Positions 4,831 to 33,202 of a stretch of 64,000 nucleotides of DNA are shown here, one piece after another; within the stretch, counting starts at the first letter, position 1, and the number at the start of each line of letters is the position of its first letter. Position numbers and translations under genes: made by a program. Below the pieces are notes generated by a model, which saw nothing but the letters and a program-made list of their open reading frames with translations, was not told where the DNA came from and did no database searches. The DNA comes from a virus. Lineage: Duplodnaviria > Caudoviricetes. The DNA lies in the IMG/VR virus record IMGVR_UViG_3300017716_001697, positions 192,001-256,000 of that record; one strand, given 5' to 3'.

Positions 4831-5042
4831 AGTTTGATCAGGCTGTGACTGATTTGCAGAACAAGTTCTGGATGCAGCCAGTTGATGCATATATATGGGC
4901 AGAGATTAAAAGATTATTGCAAGAAGATTATCCAGGTGAATATGACGTTAACTTGGGATATGATCAGCATGATTATCTACACATTAGTATTGACTTCGGA
5001 AGCCCAGAATATGAAACATACTTTAGGTTAAAATACTCATGA
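4821..5042 (+). CDS. Family A small protein
   Basis: Ends IDFGSPEYETYFRLKYS. Confidence 0.8.
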   Translation: MVIKFDQAVTDLQNKFWMQPVDAYIWAEIKRLLQEDYPGEYDVNLGYDQHDYLHISIDFGSPEYETYFRLKYS

Positions 5043-5242
5043 TATCATTCAAATACCCTAATGGCCCGTACACACTTCTGTGGCAAGCATATGTTGATGC
5101 TGGCTGGGCAAAAGACGGATTTAAGGGGTTTACTTCTAGACTAATCCCATACGCTACAGTAGAGGGCACAACACAAAAGGGTCTGATCCTGCATTTCGAC
5201 AATGAAGAAGATTTCATTGCATTTAAATTGGGGTGGCTATGA
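5039..5242 (+). CDS. Family A small protein
   Basis: Ends LHFDNEEDFIAFKLGWL. Confidence 0.85.
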   Translation: MISFKYPNGPYTLLWQAYVDAGWAKDGFKGFTSRLIPYATVEGTTQKGLILHFDNEEDFIAFKLGWL

Positions 5243-5511
5243 GACCAGATTATGTTGTCATGTTAGATTTCAGGTCCAGGGCCGATGATGAAGAAAAAAG
5301 CAAATGGTGCATGAAAAATGTAGGGAAACCATTTACTGTAGTCGATCATCCGTACGAGGGTGTGCCATACGGATTTAATTATGAAAACGATGACGGTAAA
5401 TGGTGTGCATATGTTAATAACACATATGTCTATGGACCCGAGCGGCCAGTTAATACATGGTGTTTTGTTGATAGCATCGATGCAGATGCCTTTAAACTGA
5501 GGTGGATATGA
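5239..5511 (+). CDS. Family A small protein
   Basis: Ends WCFVDSIDADAFKLRWI. Confidence 0.8.
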   Translation: MRPDYVVMLDFRSRADDEEKSKWCMKNVGKPFTVVDHPYEGVPYGFNYENDDGKWCAYVNNTYVYGPERPVNTWCFVDSIDADAFKLRWI

Positions 5512-20574: not shown

Positions 20575-20745
20575 ATGATTTGTCCGAAATGTGATACACT
20601 GATGGGTGCAATGGGGTATGGTGATGAACGGTGTCCTGCTTGTGGACACACATCATATTCTGAATCTGATGAAGAATTTAATCTTCGCATATACGGTACA
20701 ACATTCCGTGAAGGCGAAGATATTGACACTGAACAAAGAGAATAA
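20575..20745 (+). CDS. Small Zn-ribbon protein (56 aa, absent from ORF track)
   Basis: MICPKC...RCPACG; stop 1 nt before the rtcB ATG. Confidence 0.7.
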   Translation: MICPKCDTLMGAMGYGDERCPACGHTSYSESDEEFNLRIYGTTFREGEDIDTEQRE

Positions 20746-20746
20746 T

Positions 20747-21940
20747 ATGGAAATCGAAAATGTAAAAATGTGGGTAGGTGATATGGAAGTAGAGCAAGCA
20801 GCTCTATCCCAAATCCTAAACATTTCCCAACTACCTATCCTTGCTGGACACATGGCTATCATGCCAGACGTACACATGGGTAAAGGTGCCACTGTGGGTT
20901 CTGTTATCCCTACACGTTCTGCAATTATTCCTGCGGCTGTGGGTGTGGATATCGGCTGTGGTATGATTGCAGCAATGACCAACCTTACTGCCGATGATCT
21001 TCCTGACTCATTGTTTTCGTTGCGTAATGCAATTGAAAAGGTAGTACCTGTAGGATTCAACGAACACGCAAAGGGCATCCCTTCTGTATCGGGACCTTAC
21101 GCAGATATCCTGCGCAAGAATTTGCACAAGACAATGGATCAATGGGATCACTTGGCAATGAAGCAGCACCTTGGTCGTGCTGACGAAAAGCGCATTGCTC
21201 GCCAAATCGGTACGCTAGGTGGTGGTAACCACTTTATCGAAATCTGTCTCGATACATCTAACCGTGTGTGGATTATGTTACACAGTGGTTCACGCGGTAT
21301 CGGCAATCAAATCGGCACTGTTGCAATCGAAATGGCTAAAGAACAGGCTGCTAAACGTGCATGGGGTCTCCCTGATGCTGATCTTGCATGGCTGGACGAA
21401 GGCACAACCGAATTCGATGCATACATTGAGGCAATGCATTGGGCACAGGACTATGCAAAATTCAACCGCGATACAATGCTGAATTTGGTTATTTCTGCAA
21501 TGAAGGTAAAGTTTCCTACAATGAAGATTGTTGGCGAAGTTGTAAACTGCCACCATAATTTTACAAGCGTGGAAGAGCACTTCAATGAAAAGATCTGGGT
21601 GACACGTAAGGGTGCAGTTTCTGCGCAGTATGGGCAAATGGGTATTATTCCCGGCTCAATGGGTGCAAAGTCATTCATTGTTCGCGGTAAAGGTAATCCT
21701 GATTCCTACTGCTCGTGTTCGCATGGTGCTGGTCGTAAGATGAGCCGCAACCAAGCTAAGAAGTTGTTCACATCACTTGATCTAGAACAACAAACAGCCG
21801 GTGTTGAGTGCCGTAAGGATGCAGACGTAGTTGATGAAATTCCGGGTGCATATAAGGATATTGATCAGGTAATGGCAGCGCAGGCTGATTTGGTTGATAT
21901 TGTACACACGTTGAAGCAAGTTCTTTGTATTAAGGGGTAA
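20747..21940 (+). CDS. rtcB: RtcB RNA ligase (joins 3'-P or 2',3'-cyclic-P to 5'-OH)
   Basis: PDVHMGKG, VGVDIGCG, GTLGGGNHFIE, HSGSRG, HHNF, RKGA, PGSMG, SHGAGR, YKDI motifs. Confidence 0.97.
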   Translation: MEIENVKMWVGDMEVEQAALSQILNISQLPILAGHMAIMPDVHMGKGATVGSVIPTRSAIIPAAVGVDIGCGMIAAMTNLTADDLPDSLFSLRNAIEKVVPVGFNEHAKGIPSVSGPYADILRKNLHKTMDQWDHLAMKQHLGRADEKRIARQIGTLGGGNHFIEICLDTSNRVWIMLHSGSRGIGNQIGTVAIEMAKEQAAKRAWGLPDADLAWLDEGTTEFDAYIEAMHWAQDYAKFNRDTMLNLVISAMKVKFPTMKIVGEVVNCHHNFTSVEEHFNEKIWVTRKGAVSAQYGQMGIIPGSMGAKSFIVRGKGNPDSYCSCSHGAGRKMSRNQAKKLFTSLDLEQQTAGVECRKDADVVDEIPGAYKDIDQVMAAQADLVDIVHTLKQVLCIKG

Positions 21941-25663: not shown

Positions 25664-26290
25664 ATGATATGCGAATACGGATGTAATGGGGAGGCCAATC
25701 ATCAATTACTAAACGGTAAATGGTGTTGCAGTAAACGGCCCGCTGGTTGCAAGGTGCTAAAGGCAGTTAACTCGGCAGGTCTGAAGAAAGCGCATAGTGA
25801 GGGTAGGGGCGGATATATTTACAAAGATCTATCTGACGAAACCAAAGCCCGAATGAATTGGGCTAAGGGTAAGACTATTACACCCGATAGCGAAATATTT
25901 ACAGAAAATAGCACATACTCTAACGAGATGGTTAAACATAGAATTGTTAAAGGTGATCTATTAGAATACAAATGCTCTAATCCGAAATGTGGAATAACCG
26001 AATGGTGCGACGAATCTATTGTGTTAGATTTGGATCATATAAATGGTAACAACACAGATAACAGATTATCTAATTTACGATACTTATGCCCAAATTGCCA
26101 TTCTCAGACAGACACATACAAGGGCAGAAATAAGAATACAGGTAAGTTGAAAGTAACCGACACTGAATTGTTGGCAGCATATAAGGAATGCAATAATATT
26201 AGGCAAGCATTAATCAGCGTAGGAATTGCTGCAAAGGGTGGCAATTATGAAAGATTAAAAAAATTAATTAGCAAAACGCTTGCCCTATAG
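25664..26290 (+). CDS. Free-standing HNH homing endonuclease
   Basis: LDLDHINGNNTDNRLSNLRYLCPNCHSQT; N-terminal CEYGC..WCC Zn motif; C-terminal HTH-like tail; late box GATAAATA and RBS AGGAG. Confidence 0.9.
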   Translation: MICEYGCNGEANHQLLNGKWCCSKRPAGCKVLKAVNSAGLKKAHSEGRGGYIYKDLSDETKARMNWAKGKTITPDSEIFTENSTYSNEMVKHRIVKGDLLEYKCSNPKCGITEWCDESIVLDLDHINGNNTDNRLSNLRYLCPNCHSQTDTYKGRNKNTGKLKVTDTELLAAYKECNNIRQALISVGIAAKGGNYERLKKLISKTLAL

Positions 26291-26308
26291 CTAAATATGT
26301 TGTATAAT
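26280..26308 (+). promoter_or_regulatory. Promoter for the tRNA/ncRNA array
   Basis: TTGCCC-N17-TATAAT with an internal TAAATA. Confidence 0.6.
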
Positions 26309-26358: not shown

Positions 26359-26648
26359 GCGGGTATGGAGAAATTGGTAAACTCACCAGACTTAGAGAAA
26401 TAAAATTTGAGTGCCCGGTCGGAAACGATCGGAGTAGAACCTGTCAAATTCGGCGAACACTTTAACATGTCAACGCCGAGCGAAGCCCGAAAGGGAACGT
26501 GTAGAGACTTGACGGCAGGTACCTAACGCAGAAATGCTACGGTAAAGACAAAGTCCAGACTATCAAACCGAGAGGGTAGCGAAAGCTATAGTAGTAAGAA
26601 AATCTGGCGCCGCAAGGCTTGACGGTTCAAGTCCGTCTACCCGCACCA
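26359..26648 (+). tRNA. trnL: tRNA-Leu(UAA) interrupted by a group I intron
   Basis: Exons 26359..26393 and 26599..26648 join into GCGGGTA/TACCCGC acceptor, CCAGA-CTTAAAA-TCTGG anticodon arm, long variable arm and ACCA. Confidence 0.93.
26394..26598 (+). mobile_element. Group I intron (IC3-like, 205 nt, no ORF)
   Basis: P1 ACTT/GAGT with U-G at the splice site; P AAATTCGGCGAA, Q AACGCCGAGCGAAG, R GTGTAGAGACT, S AAGACAAAGTCC; terminal G. Confidence 0.92.
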
Positions 26649-26746
26649 TATTAGGATACATTGTGCAGACGCGGTAGCTAGCCCAAAAGGGACTTTACTA
26701 GCGACAATGGTGAATGCAGGTACAACAGTGTATCCCAATATGGTGC
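26643..26746 (+). ncRNA. Array element E1 (long closing stem, branched interior)
   Basis: GCACCATATT-A-GGATACATTGT / ACAGTGTATCC-C-AATATGGTGC. Confidence 0.75.
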
Positions 26747-26927
26747 CATATTAAAACGCATAAATGCATTAGTTGCATTGGTAATCTGAATGACGTGGAT
26801 AGCTGCATCTTACCCACTGTCAAACAGAGGACATTGCAGGTGATAGCAAATGTAATGGTTTACAGCTAGGCGATTAGAGTCTGGTAGGTGGGTTCAACTC
26901 CTGCTAATGCGGTTTAACATGGCACCA
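26744..26927 (+). ncRNA. Array element E2 (long stem enclosing a tRNA-like domain, ends in CCA)
   Basis: TGCCATATTAAAACGCAT / ATGCGGTTTAACATGGCA; internal T-arm GTGGG-TTCAACT-CCTGC. Confidence 0.7.
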
Positions 26928-27017
26928 TATCGAAGTACATTAACTGAGTACAAGGCTCAGCGTGCGAATTTTAGTAACTAAGCCTCAAGAGGAAGCTATA
27001 GTGTACTTCGATATGGT
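26924..27017 (+). ncRNA. Array element E3
   Basis: Perfect 16-bp stem ACCATATCGAAGTACA/TGTACTTCGATATGGT with three small internal hairpins. Confidence 0.8.
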
Positions 27018-27065: not shown

Positions 27066-27189
27066 AAACTCGACTGTGGTGTAATGGTAGCACTCAAAAG
27101 TTCCTGGTTCGAATCCAGGCCCGCAATAACCAAAGGGGGTTCGGCACAACGAGTAGGAGAGATGGTTCGATTCCGTCCGAATAGAGTTT
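27066..27189 (+). ncRNA. Element E4: D-arm plus two T-arms, no anticodon arm
   Basis: GTGT-AATGGTA-GCAC; CCTGG-TTCGAAT-CCAGG; GATGG-TTCGATT-CCGTC; closed by AAACTC/GAGTTT. Confidence 0.6.
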
Positions 27190-27190
27190 G

Positions 27191-27269
27191 CATATTAGAG
27201 GGCATTATGCTTCTATTTAAAAAGGGAGCCTGTGCTGGCACATTGGCACATCTAATGTCCTCTAATATG
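27191..27269 (+). ncRNA. Array element E5
   Basis: 17-bp stem CATATTAGAGGGCATTA/TAATGTCCTCTAATATG. Confidence 0.8.
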
Positions 27270-27423
27270 ATGCAGGTAGGCAAATGTGGTAAAGCCGCCG
27301 GTTCGGTCCGGTGAGAGATATGTTGAAGTCTTACATGATGACGGGTAGCTGGGTCGACACAGTCCGTACAGTGGCAGGAGCGATATATTTCGTTTATGGG
27401 TTCGATTCCCATCTTGTATCCCA
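27269..27423 (+). ncRNA. tRNA-His-like RNA with 84-nt variable region and 6-nt anticodon loop
   Basis: G-1:C73 pair, acceptor ATGCAGG/CTTGTAT, D-arm GGC/GCC, T-arm ATGGG-TTCGATT-CCCAT, CCA end. Confidence 0.7.
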
Positions 27424-27428
27424 GAATA

Positions 27429-27628
27429 GCCAGGGTAGCTCAGTCAGGCACGAAACTTAAAGGGAAGATGTTGCAACATTCAACGGAGAGAAGTAATGAC
27501 TTAGGAAGGTTAAGTAGTAAGCATCTTATGATACGCGGTGTAAGGTGTGTAGGTGATAGCCAACTATTAAGTAGAGCAACCAGTATCTAACTGGAAGGTC
27601 GTTGGTTCAATTCCATCCGCTGGCACCA
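27429..27628 (+). ncRNA. tRNA-like RNA with a ~120-nt structured D-loop insertion
   Basis: Acceptor GCCAGGG/CGCTGGC, D-stem GCTC/GAGC enclosing 132 nt, anticodon arm CCAG-TATCTAA-CTGG, T-loop TTCAATT, ACCA. Confidence 0.75.
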
Positions 27629-27634
27629 AATTAT

Positions 27635-27749
27635 GCGATGATAGCTTCAGGTTGGTAGAGCGCGTCATTGAATGCCCTATTTATTCTACGTTATGGTATA
27701 TAGGCGAGTGGTCAGGACGAGGTCGCAGGTTCAACGCCTGCTCATTGTA
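27635..27749 (+). ncRNA. tRNA-Phe(GAA)-like RNA with ~40 extra nt in the anticodon loop
   Basis: Acceptor GCGATGA/TCATTGT, D-arm GCTT/GAGC, CGTCA-TT-GAA...GGACG, T-arm GCAGG-TTCAACG-CCTGC. Confidence 0.72.
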
Positions 27750-27753
27750 TAAG

Positions 27754-27861
27754 CCATATGAGAATACACTGTGGAGAGCACTGCGTATGACTGGGAAGGT
27801 TTGAACCCGACTCACATCGTCACTCGGTATCCTGCGGCCGCAACAGTGTATTCCCATATGG
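27754..27861 (+). ncRNA. Array element E7 (paralog of E1)
   Basis: CCATATG-A-GAATACACTGT / ACAGTGTATTC-C-CATATGG; compensatory changes relative to E1. Confidence 0.8.
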
Positions 27862-28185
27862 TACGAAGGGTAGAAGATGATATCAAAGGCTATTTCCTTT
27901 TTTGATAGACGAAACGCTGTGGCCACGGTGTTAGACTACTTATTGGTTAACCATTGTACCGCCAGATTCCGAAGCCTGTAATCAGGCCTGCCAAACAGTA
28001 AATTGGAGTGTGGGAGGACGCACTTAAAACCATCTCCCGCAGGGTCACCATGTGTTATGAGCGGTGATAGTTTAGCGAACCGGAGTCCTAAAAACCGGAA
28101 GGGTAAAGCAAACTTACCTACAAGTAGCGAAAGGTCTGCTATAGCAGTCAAGCCATCCTAGTCTGGAAAACTAGGGTGCATTTAT
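27862..28185 (+). ncRNA. Unassigned multi-hairpin RNA ending in a terminator-like stem
   Basis: Stems TATCAAA/TTTGATA, GCCTG/CAGGC, GAGTGTG/CGCACTT, TCACC/GGTGA, GGGTAA/TTACCT, CATCCTAG/CTAGGGTG. Confidence 0.45.
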
Positions 28186-28348
28186 TTTAGAAAGATATCC
28201 ATATGTACACTTATGCATGGACCATATTTGGTTATTACGGTGGACCTACTATGACAACAAATTATCAACAACACTGTTCGTGGTACACTGTTGACGATTT
28301 TGGTGATCTCGTACCTGCCACATACAAAATGGATTATTTGGAGACAAC

Positions 28349-28797: not shown

Positions 28798-28874
28798 CGG
28801 CATACCCGTATCTACTGCATAAAGGTATAGACTAGTAATACCACGGCTCTTGGTTGTTATCGGACTAAACAACC

Positions 28875-29011
28875 ACCATATCAAATCATATTGCCCTACC
28901 CATTGGGTAGCAGACAGTGGTTGGAAGGATCTGCTCGTTACTCGCCGCGTTGGATGCACTCGGGTTGCACCGATGCCAACAGACAGTGATTGCAGTATGA
29001 TTTGATATGGT
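28875..29011 (+). ncRNA. Array element E8
   Basis: 20-bp stem ACCATATCAAATCATATTGC/GCAGTATGATTTGATATGGT with a branched interior. Confidence 0.8.
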
Positions 29012-29119
29012 CATTATATAGAAACAGAATTCTATGTTACAGGCGTGGGGGGTACGAACCACATTAAATAAATAAGTAACTGAAAATCCTGTGCCCCTCG
29101 AGTATGTTTCTATATGGTG
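29012..29119 (+). ncRNA. Array element E9
   Basis: 15-bp stem CATTATATAGAAACA/TGTTTCTATATGGTG abutting E8. Confidence 0.7.
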
Positions 29120-29242
29120 ATGTAGTGTCCTCGAAAGGGACTGTGGCGGGGCGGAACGGATCGTTATACGGTGATGCCCATGAGAATTCAATCCACACGG
29201 AGCAAGAGTAAGTGAACGTGAGTAGCCGACTACCAATCACCA
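29115..29242 (+). ncRNA. Array element E10
   Basis: TGGTGAT-GTAGT / ACTAC-CA-ATCACCA; overlaps the 3' end of E9. Confidence 0.55.
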
Positions 29243-29275
29243 TAACCATTAGACAGCGGCGGCGCCGGGTGTTAT

Positions 29276-29333: not shown

Positions 29334-29463
29334 TCTTATTGAAGTACATTTTTGTCCACATTTCTCCAGGGAGCGACTGTGGGTGCGTTGTCACTAAACT
29401 ATACGACGCCAACCATCCCTAGACTGTACGTAAGACACACAGTTGGAATGTGCTTCAATAAGA
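29334..29463 (+). ncRNA. Array element E12 (paralog of E3)
   Basis: 17-bp stem TCTTATTGAAGTACATT/AATGTGCTTCAATAAGA. Confidence 0.78.
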
Positions 29464-31819: not shown

Positions 31820-33202
31820 ATGTCACATAAACTACTCGCAGAAATCGCAGCCGACAATGGTAAGCTGTACAAGATTGCTGTTATCAACCGCGAAGCCATT
31901 AAGGGCAACAATGAATTCTTTGCTGGTCTGCGTTATGCATTGGACAATATTGATACCTTTGGTGTAAAGAAGATTCCGGTTCGCGCTGGCTACGATGGTG
32001 CTGGTTTGCCGTTTCCTGCATTCGCTACATTTGCTAATGAACTGATCGCTCGCAACCTAACGGGCGGTGCTGCGATTACTGCAATCGAGCAGCTCATGGC
32101 TATCGCAACCAATGACGAGTGGAATGGCTGGTATCGTCCGATTCTTATTAAGGACTTAGGCTCTGGATTCAGTGAGTCCACTGTTAACAAGGCGGTTAAG
32201 GGCGTTAATCCGGCATACATTATCCCTGTTACTCCTTACATGCGGTGTAGTCTGCCACCTAAGTCCAACATGGACACATGGGACTACTCTGAAGGTGTGT
32301 ATTCACAAATCAAAGCAGACGGAATGTTTGCTTATGTGAATGTAAGCAAGGATGGTTTCGTGCAGATTACTTCACGTGGCGGTACAGTGATGCCACAGGG
32401 CGTACTCGGTATCGAGGATGCTGCGTCAAAGACTTTCCGACACGGTACAAGCACACACGGCGAGCTGACAGTGTATCGTAACGGTGTGATGCTGGAACGT
32501 CAGGTCGGTAATGGTATTCTGAATTCTGTATCCAAGGGCGGTGAGTTTGGCCCTGGTGAAGTTGTTGTATTTGATTGCTGGGATCAGATCCCACTGGAAC
32601 ACTTTGTTTCTAAAGGCAAGTACAAGGTTACATACCATAATCGTTTCGTCGATCTGGAAGCACAACTAGCTGCCAGTGCATCCGATCAAATCAAAATGAT
32701 CGAAACAAAGATTGTGTACAGTCCAGATGAATTGCTGGCACACTATCGTGATGCTCGTAAGCGTAAGCTGGAAGGCACTGTAGGCAAATGGCGTCACGGT
32801 GAATGGAAGGACGGCACAAGTAAGGACCAAGTAAAGCAGAAGGAAGTGATCGATGTTGAGCTTGAAATCAAAGGTTTTACCGTTGGTAAAAACAAGTTTG
32901 CACACTTGTTTGGCTCGCTCATCTGCCGTAGTAGCTGCGACCTGCTAGAAGTCAACGCTTCGGGTATCCCGGATGATTTACGAATTGAAATTAGCAACAA
33001 CCGCGACAAGTACATGAATAGTATTGCTACCATTCGCTCGAACGGTATCATGTATTCCACTAAGGAAGGTAAGTTGCATTCGCTGTTCCTGCCACGCCTA
33101 ATTGAACTGCGTGATGACAAAACGGTTGCTGACTCGTTCGAATACATTGAAGAGCAATTTGCTGCTGCAATGGGCACTGAAGAAGTAGAGGTCGAAGAAT
33201 GA
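31820..33202 (+). CDS. lig: ATP-dependent DNA ligase (T4 gp30-like)
   Basis: Motif I KADG, HGEL, FDCW, EGTVGK, motif V KQKE, OB fold ending LFLPRLIELRDDK. Confidence 0.93.
   Translation: MSHKLLAEIAADNGKLYKIAVINREAIKGNNEFFAGLRYALDNIDTFGVKKIPVRAGYDGAGLPFPAFATFANELIARNLTGGAAITAIEQLMAIATNDEWNGWYRPILIKDLGSGFSESTVNKAVKGVNPAYIIPVTPYMRCSLPPKSNMDTWDYSEGVYSQIKADGMFAYVNVSKDGFVQITSRGGTVMPQGVLGIEDAASKTFRHGTSTHGELTVYRNGVMLERQVGNGILNSVSKGGEFGPGEVVVFDCWDQIPLEHFVSKGKYKVTYHNRFVDLEAQLAASASDQIKMIETKIVYSPDELLAHYRDARKRKLEGTVGKWRHGEWKDGTSKDQVKQKEVIDVELEIKGFTVGKNKFAHLFGSLICRSSCDLLEVNASGIPDDLRIEISNNRDKYMNSIATIRSNGIMYSTKEGKLHSLFLPRLIELRDDKTVADSFEYIEEQFAAAMGTEEVEVEE

Follow-up and report, generated by a model that had tools for sequence, protein, structure and literature searches.

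CCA-anchored stems in the tRNA cluster of a large phage as predicted RNase III sites of a tRNA and small-RNA transcript

Processing of the T4 tRNA cluster, which also gives rise to the stable RNAs species 1 and 2, includes an RNase III step, and we know of no repeated, conserved family of CCA-anchored stems with exchangeable inserts in that phage. An RNase III substrate is double-helical over about 20 bp in total, with 11 bp or more lying to one side of the cut, and E. coli RNase III reads an 11-bp helix with a proximal box (A/U, A-U, A/U and G-C, counted from the cut; PMC1540722) and a distal box consisting of a U.G and a U-A pair (PMC1540722; PMC6212723 labels these positions D and J). In T7, the RNase III signals R0.3, R0.5, R1, R1.1 and R1.3, with uR1.1 as a minimal substrate (PMC1540722), punctuate a polycistronic phage transcript with stems that close loops of 3-5 nt and separate mRNAs. 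At the 3' ends of E. coli tRNAs RNase E cuts 1-3 nt past the CCA and is followed by exonucleases (PMC2190699), and theta ribozymes, which are self-cleaving HDV-like folds of gut phages, are cis-elements fused to tRNA 3' ends for which trailer removal has been proposed (PMC10879173).

The locus compared here with these systems lies in a complete phage genome of 364,576 bases with terminal repeats and about 50 tRNA genes, of which the 64,000-nucleotide stretch analysed is referred to as the window. Its cluster of tRNAs and long stems is gene-free, is preceded by an HNH-type ORF and is flanked by an rtcB-like gene and a DNA ligase gene. The HNH-type ORF (25664-26290) is free-standing, lies just 5' of the intron-bearing tRNA-Leu and, judging by motif and position, is possibly a free-standing homing endonuclease. 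The features of the region are as follows.

20606-21940: rtcB-like gene, recognised from sequence
26280-26308, plus strand: sigma-70-like promoter 5' of the cluster (10/12), a consensus match only
26359-26648, plus strand: tRNA-Leu(UAA), exons 26359-26393 and 26599-26648, encoded CCA 26646-26648
26394-26598, plus strand: group I intron in the anticodon (Rfam RF00028, 53 bits; ARAGORN, 205-nt intron)
26645-26744, plus strand: E1, family stem from A73-CCA of tRNA-Leu, insert of about 60 nt
26739-26931, plus strand: E2, RNA between E1 and E3, tRNA-shaped core with T-arm (about 26765-26912)
26924-27017, plus strand: E3, family stem, conserved 58-nt insert, predicted cuts 26931^26932 and 27011^27012
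27191-27269, plus strand: family stem starting at CATAT, without CCA
27634-27750, plus strand: tRNA-shaped RNA 5' of E7, no CCA at the canonical position
27753-27862, plus strand: E7, family stem, predicted cuts 27760^27761 and 27856^27857
28154-28188, plus strand: terminator-like hairpin, conserved in the relative L013
28852-28878, plus strand: 7-bp hairpin (28852-28874) with ACCA, an acceptor-like microhelix without T-arm, 5' of E8
28875-29011, plus strand: E8, family stem, predicted cuts 28882^28883 and 29005^29006
29334-29463, plus strand: family stem without CCA
31820-33202: DNA ligase

With its intron removed the tRNA-Leu transcript folds into an 85-nt cloverleaf ending in ACCA (-30.5 kcal/mol). 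The 3' end of the tRNA is at the same time the 5' arm of a 22-bp stem (26643-26664 with 26725-26746), and in the folded precursor A73-C74-C75-A76 pair with 26741-26744 (P~1.0) and G71 and C72 remain in the acceptor stem. When 1589 arbitrary segments of 16 nt from the window were examined for a partner of such quality, a single one had it; the arms of E1, E3, E7 and E8 score 14.6-15.6 of 16 in the same test. The proposal of the initial annotation that the tRNA-Leu 3' end is the first strand of E1's stem is upheld. The stem of E1 contains an A.C mismatch at 26653/26736, which also occurs in E7. A search for homologues of the E1 insert gave 26 pattern matches, on inspection all unrelated.

Only the first of the five CCAs named in that annotation is a canonical tRNA end. 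Overlaps of the same kind had been claimed at 27754 and 28875, where E7 and E8 do start, but at neither is the CCA a canonical tRNA end: that at 27754 comes 4 nt later than in a canonical tRNA, the acceptor strand (27742-27748) and A27749 of the tRNA-shaped RNA being followed by TAA, and no tRNA lies 5' of E8, the ACCA at 28875 following just the 7-bp hairpin. The motif CCATAT alone is not enriched in the window (50 occurrences against 45 expected), only its paired form is, and a search with the E7 arm pattern gave two matches, neither with a stem. Between 27075 and 27632 there are further tRNA-shaped RNAs at 27075-27130, without an anticodon arm, at 27270-27423, and at 27429-27628, the last with a large D-loop insertion and a 3' part that is 79% identical in L007. 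An unannotated non-coding stretch of 230 nt (27966-28195) shares 70% identity with L007:3261-3494, where it follows tRNA-Leu, and non-coding 29111-29243 shares 84% identity with L013:7471-7601, both lying between family stems.

The RNA between E1 and E3 has a 7-bp acceptor-like stem, a T-arm and a long arm that replaces the D and anticodon arms; a T-arm resembling that of E2 is found at C1:32729 of the genome, and a search for E2 homologues found none. Segments are shared between neighbours, as had been noticed from the sequence, 26741-26746 being common to the 3' arm of E1 and a possible 5' arm of E2 and 26922-26930 to the 3' arm of E2 and the 5' arm of E3, but the TGCCA that had been read as E1's end is the start of E2's own stem, in which 26747-26748 pair with 26921-26920 (P~1.0). 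Cutting as predicted would leave E2 with its two ends paired in a stem of 11 bp, the 3' end overhanging by exactly 2 nt, a geometry also present in its positional counterpart L013:7081-7204.

From these overlaps it had been suggested that the folds exclude each other and may form a regulated switch for tRNA-Leu maturation, with E1 and E2 perhaps ending in chargeable CCAs, a reading that we now regard as very unlikely. The unconstrained minimum-energy fold (-169.2 kcal/mol) contains the cloverleaf, E1, E2 and E3 together, and the folds are therefore compatible and not mutually exclusive. A 35-bp alternative helix does exist, but forcing it costs 15.1 kcal/mol (-154.1 kcal/mol) and forcing the NCCA free costs 8.9 kcal/mol (-160.3 kcal/mol), so that mutually exclusive folds close to each other in energy are lacking, and no more than 2-8 pairs at the junctions change partners. 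In equilibrium folding of transcripts of increasing length the pairing of C74 is 1.0, falls to 0.09 and 0.03 at 26930-26945 and returns to 1.0: the CCA is transiently displaced by the 3' end of E2 while E3 is incomplete, and complete E3 reclaims that strand. This transient release is the part of the switch idea that survives, and E2's own stem also reaches its ACCA, here and in L013, but the release is branch migration in an equilibrium calculation, arising because the 5' arms of E1 and E3 are near-identical. A ligand or sensor element is absent, an E2-like partner is missing from most family members, all 11 syntenic tRNA-Leu orthologues are without the stem (0/11 show conserved coupling to the gene supposedly controlled), and the same genome has a second, intron-free tRNA-Leu(UAA). 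As for charging, a chargeable RNA would present an unpaired NCCA at the end of an acceptor helix with a T-loop 12 bp away, which neither E1 nor E2 does: E1 lacks a T-arm and what was taken for its CCA is the 5' strand of E2, and E2's CCA lies about 17 nt past the tRNA-shaped core and pairs with E3 or with E2's own 5' end. Of the idea that processing is ordered or switchable the order remains plausible, with the stem opened before the tRNA 3' end matures, and the regulated switch is unsupported. The CCA overlap most likely marks a site at which the transcript is cut, and is probably not a folding switch.

The arrangement is not confined to this genome. A two-arm pattern drawn from the window's stems, which does not itself enforce pairing, matched at least 120 viral contig stretches and at least 120 metagenome stretches. 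Among the matches listed there were 138 unique viral members, related to one another so that counts are not independent events, of which 137 lie near a called tRNA, 86 start exactly on the ARAGORN CCA against 3 at other offsets, and 36 have the G of ATATG as G1 of the next tRNA. At the columns left free by the pattern the members' own arms form 7.19 Watson-Crick pairs compared with 6.12±0.06 for shuffled arms. Among 1865 phage tRNAs scanned without the motif, 169 have a long stem that begins at C75, compared with 1-2 at offsets +20 and +30; 81 of the 169 do not fit the search pattern, and the resulting 9% is not a general frequency since the loci were fetched mostly via the pattern. Taken by tRNA, CCA-anchored stems at loci L031-L157 concentrate on Lys(UUU), with 50 of 73 cases, Glu(UUC) with 35/83, Gln(UUG) with 14/71 and Leu(UAG) with 13/69, counts that may reflect descent as well as selection. 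The excess of stems at C75 supports CCA sequestration as a selected, widespread design.

Apart from the group I intron and weak hits, Rfam gave no match up to E=10, so the family is without an Rfam model, and the stems had no BLAST match in cultured phages; they are also absent at 13 tRNAs in 24-kb stretches of XaC1 and GAP32. All 7 matches in prokaryote genomes are in metagenome-assembled bins of unrelated taxa and are probably mis-binned phage DNA. Our literature searches found no description of a CCA-anchored stem family: punctuation of phage transcripts by RNase III is already known, whereas the use of CCA as a recognition box and the insert library were not found described in the papers searched or in Rfam. 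Two known classes were considered and set aside, a theta or other known ribozyme as there was no Rfam ribozyme match, and a Y RNA as the genome has no Ro60/Rsr (TROVE) gene and gave no Rfam match for it.

The inserts carried by the stems comprise 260 sequences in 151 clusters among the matches listed, and they are modular, moving between tRNAs and between stems across phages. The E3 insert is 97% identical in L013, where it follows the CCA of tRNA-Thr, and 93% identical in L030, where it sits in an unrelated stem without a tRNA, and the E7 insert is 87.5% identical to one following the CCA of tRNA-Phe in L064. Such mobility, together with the absence of the elements at orthologous tRNA-Leu loci, could suggest that the elements are small mobile or recombining units with inverted repeats, inserted as DNA at the 3' ends of tRNAs, their RNA pairing being incidental. 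We consider this hardly probable, as no target duplication was seen and as the fixed columns hold strand-specific U.G pairs (114/138 among the matches listed) and A.C mismatches (59/138), which are RNA features and make the DNA repeat imperfect. The CCATAT motif itself had been proposed to derive from a tRNA CCA plus TAT. In other phages a tRNA-Thr lies immediately before the orthologue of E3 and a tRNA-Phe before that of E7, which agrees with this, and E3 and E7 have probably kept tRNA-derived CCA ends; CATA is, however, kept in members without a tRNA (27191), and a nuclease recognition box therefore fits better than a tRNA relic. On the minus strand of L030, at 5039-5270, two long-stem RNAs carry the inserts of the window's E3 and of L013:7595-7721 in different stems, among promoter-like repeats and distant from tRNAs.

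The genome encodes a permuted two-piece tmRNA outside the window (C1:30533-30892, tag ANADTFALVA) with a long intervening hairpin after the CCA, a form also seen at L009:8616-8733. The hairpin after the CCA is the likeness to the stems described here; the difference is that the tmRNA's intervening segment joins two halves of one acceptor stem, whereas after E1 just 2 nt match the 5' end of tRNA-Leu, and a circularly permuted tRNA was rejected on this ground. A further permuted-looking arrangement at C1:13480-13650 runs from a T-arm and GGTCCACCA through a 14-bp stem with an insert to GGGCC, giving a G3.U70 alanine-like acceptor, and then to another T-arm ending in CTCCACCA. At C1:10343-10499 there is a tRNA-Ala-like RNA (GGGGC/GCTCC acceptor, T-arm and CCA) whose leader pairs with the CCA and trailer. 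A tRNA-Met lies within a long leader-trailer stem at L002:4474-4570, L006:5321-5420 and L013:4329-4444, which is a second way of putting a tRNA in a helix.

In order to compare the stems with RNase III sites we used a simple box score with boxes from PMC1540722 and PMC6212723, an E. coli consensus that may not be that of the host, and a register, CCAUAUN^, chosen by us from the motif so that the cut falls 4 nt after the CCA. Read from its own cut the far strand gives UAUG, which matches the proximal box at every position, C75 and A76 being the partners in its G-C and A/U pairs. Inside the stem a U.G and a U-A pair stand at positions 9 and 10. The stems are 17-26 bp long, with 11-14 bp inside the predicted cuts and just 6-8 bp outside them. 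Over the 169 C75-anchored stems the outer half agrees with the proximal box at frequencies of 0.98, 0.93, 0.99 and 0.99, two of these positions being set by the CCA, and position 3 of the inner proximal box is A/U in 91%; the inner box has G-C at position 4 in 13% of the family only. The distal box is exact in E1, E3 and E8. The two central pairs are mostly A-U or U-A and do not show the preference for G-C, which in E. coli in vivo sites is a preference and not a requirement (PMC6212723).

Stems of the cluster that were picked by complementarity alone reach 7.5, and 6.2 after shuffling; other stems of the genome score 5.8 against 5.8, and only 4 of the 8 cluster stems are individually significant. 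The stems are near-palindromic, and on the minus strand the score is still 7.1. A set of 39 dereplicated CCA-anchored stems outside the search motif scores 6.72 in the chosen register and 4.82 in the best of seven others; for the inner half taken by itself the values are 3.08 and no more than 2.64. U.G pairs in these stems peak at the distal-box column (11/39), on the inner side only, and U follows the CCA in 32/39 compared with 291/1709. Six window stems share 32 of 66 pairs with the upper helix of T7 R1.1, against a null of 12.5±3.0 and a maximum of 25 in 20000 shuffles, the helix being read from its record. E3 is the best box match, with 7 of 11 pairs as in R1.1. The inner half of E1 has an inhibitory G-C at position 2 or 3 of the proximal box and a box score of 6 (p=0.8); a G-C at position 2 prevents E. 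coli RNase III binding in vitro.

Searches found neither an RNase III nor a dsRNA-binding domain nor a phage CCA-adding enzyme in this genome, and no RNase III in 10 relatives, so that the enzyme would be the host's. The possibility that some other nuclease, either a phage enzyme of no known family or one of the Mini-III type, cuts at or near the CCA draws on the exact CCA anchoring, on the many unannotated ORFs of the genome and on the resemblance of ACCA/UGGU to the Mini-III site ACC^U (PMC6212723). We judge it quite improbable given that the U.G and U-A pairs coincide with the RNase III distal box in the chosen register, that members without CCA retain the same inner pattern and that an RNase III-fold gene is absent from all 11 genomes.

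It is somewhat less improbable, though still unlikely, that the stem is bound and not cut, serving as a fixed docking point, either a decoy that occupies RNase III or a site for some protein of host or phage, while the inserts are interchangeable functional domains. The family is more sequence-invariant than cellular RNase III sites, staying near-invariant around at least 151 unrelated insert clusters, which counts against cutting and which a protein-binding site would explain too. Moreover 116 of 138 members among the matches listed have A.C or G-C at the pair that adjoins the predicted 5' cut, and G-C beside the cut uncouples binding from cleavage (PMC1540722). On the other hand the stem hides the CCA, often along with G1 of the next tRNA, and has to release it, the outer half departs little from the ideal proximal box and carries a U-A, which is permissive, at the cut, and there is the lack of a phage dsRNA-binding domain noted above.

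On the sequence evidence we think it likely that the stems are host RNase III sites punctuating a polycistronic transcript of tRNAs and small RNAs, with a maturation that is predicted to be ordered and unregulated. In this mechanism C75, A76 and the next UA would pair with the far-strand UAUG to form an outer proximal box, and the inner 11 bp would bear a second proximal box and the U.G/U-A distal box. RNase III would cut the 3' strand before UAUGG (E1: 26738^26739), just 5' of the next RNA, and, where the inner half permits as in E3 and E8, also the 5' strand 4 nt past the CCA (26652^26653 in E1). An A.C mismatch or G-C is frequent next to the 5' cut, which suggests that in E1 and many other members, as in T7 R1.1, the 3' strand is the main one to be cut; R1.1 too has a mismatch at this first position, and its far strand alone is cut, as may apply to E1. 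The leftover helix of 6-8 bp (-6.2 kcal/mol) would then be displaced by the pairing of the E2 ends (-18.2 kcal/mol), freeing the CCA, whereupon RNase E or 3' exonucleases together with RNase P would finish the tRNA, exonucleases trimming CCAUAUU, and the inserts would come off as small, structured RNAs. In its substrates RNase P pairs with a CCA that is free, and 5' maturation should therefore follow the cut too. The order of events would arise without regulatory input, and the overlaps of E1, E2 and E3 would follow from sites placed back to back, 3' arms ending in UAUGG and 5' arms starting with CCAUA.

Measured against the described systems, the stems share with the T7 signals the 11-bp helix, the A-A-G proximal box, the U.G/U-A distal box, the mismatch beside the 5' scissile bond and the punctuation of a polycistronic phage transcript (PMC1540722). 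Unlike those signals they close structured inserts of 40-200 nt, separate tRNAs and non-coding RNAs, and take the tRNA CCA as part of the outer box. With T4 they would have in common that a host double-strand nuclease helps to cut a phage precursor of tRNAs and stable RNAs. The short AU-rich trailer is like those of E. coli, CCAUAUU resembling the RNase E sites of tyrT and hisR (PMC2190699), but here trailer and CCA are double-stranded and RNase E would thus be blocked until the stem is opened. As with theta ribozymes a phage cis-element is fused to tRNA 3' ends, the difference being that here a plain helix is conserved. The stems are likely a variant that acts in the manner of the RNase III signals of T7 and takes on the task suggested for theta ribozymes (PMC10879173), membership being inferred from sequence.

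More tentatively, and with a good deal less confidence than in the cutting itself, the large phages concerned, mostly from aquatic metagenomes, may have in one CCA-anchored RNase III cassette a socket into which more than 150 unrelated small structured RNAs are fitted, so that the release of selected tRNAs (Lys-UUU, Glu-UUC, Gln-UUG) and of effector or decoy RNAs would depend on a single host enzyme and the CCA would be shielded until then. If the RNase III reading is correct, it would define a route of tRNA 3' maturation whose nuclease recognises the CCA itself as part of its site, with cuts predicted to the nucleotide, and it would provide a simple tag that delimits hundreds of unannotated phage small RNAs, in at least 151 insert clusters.
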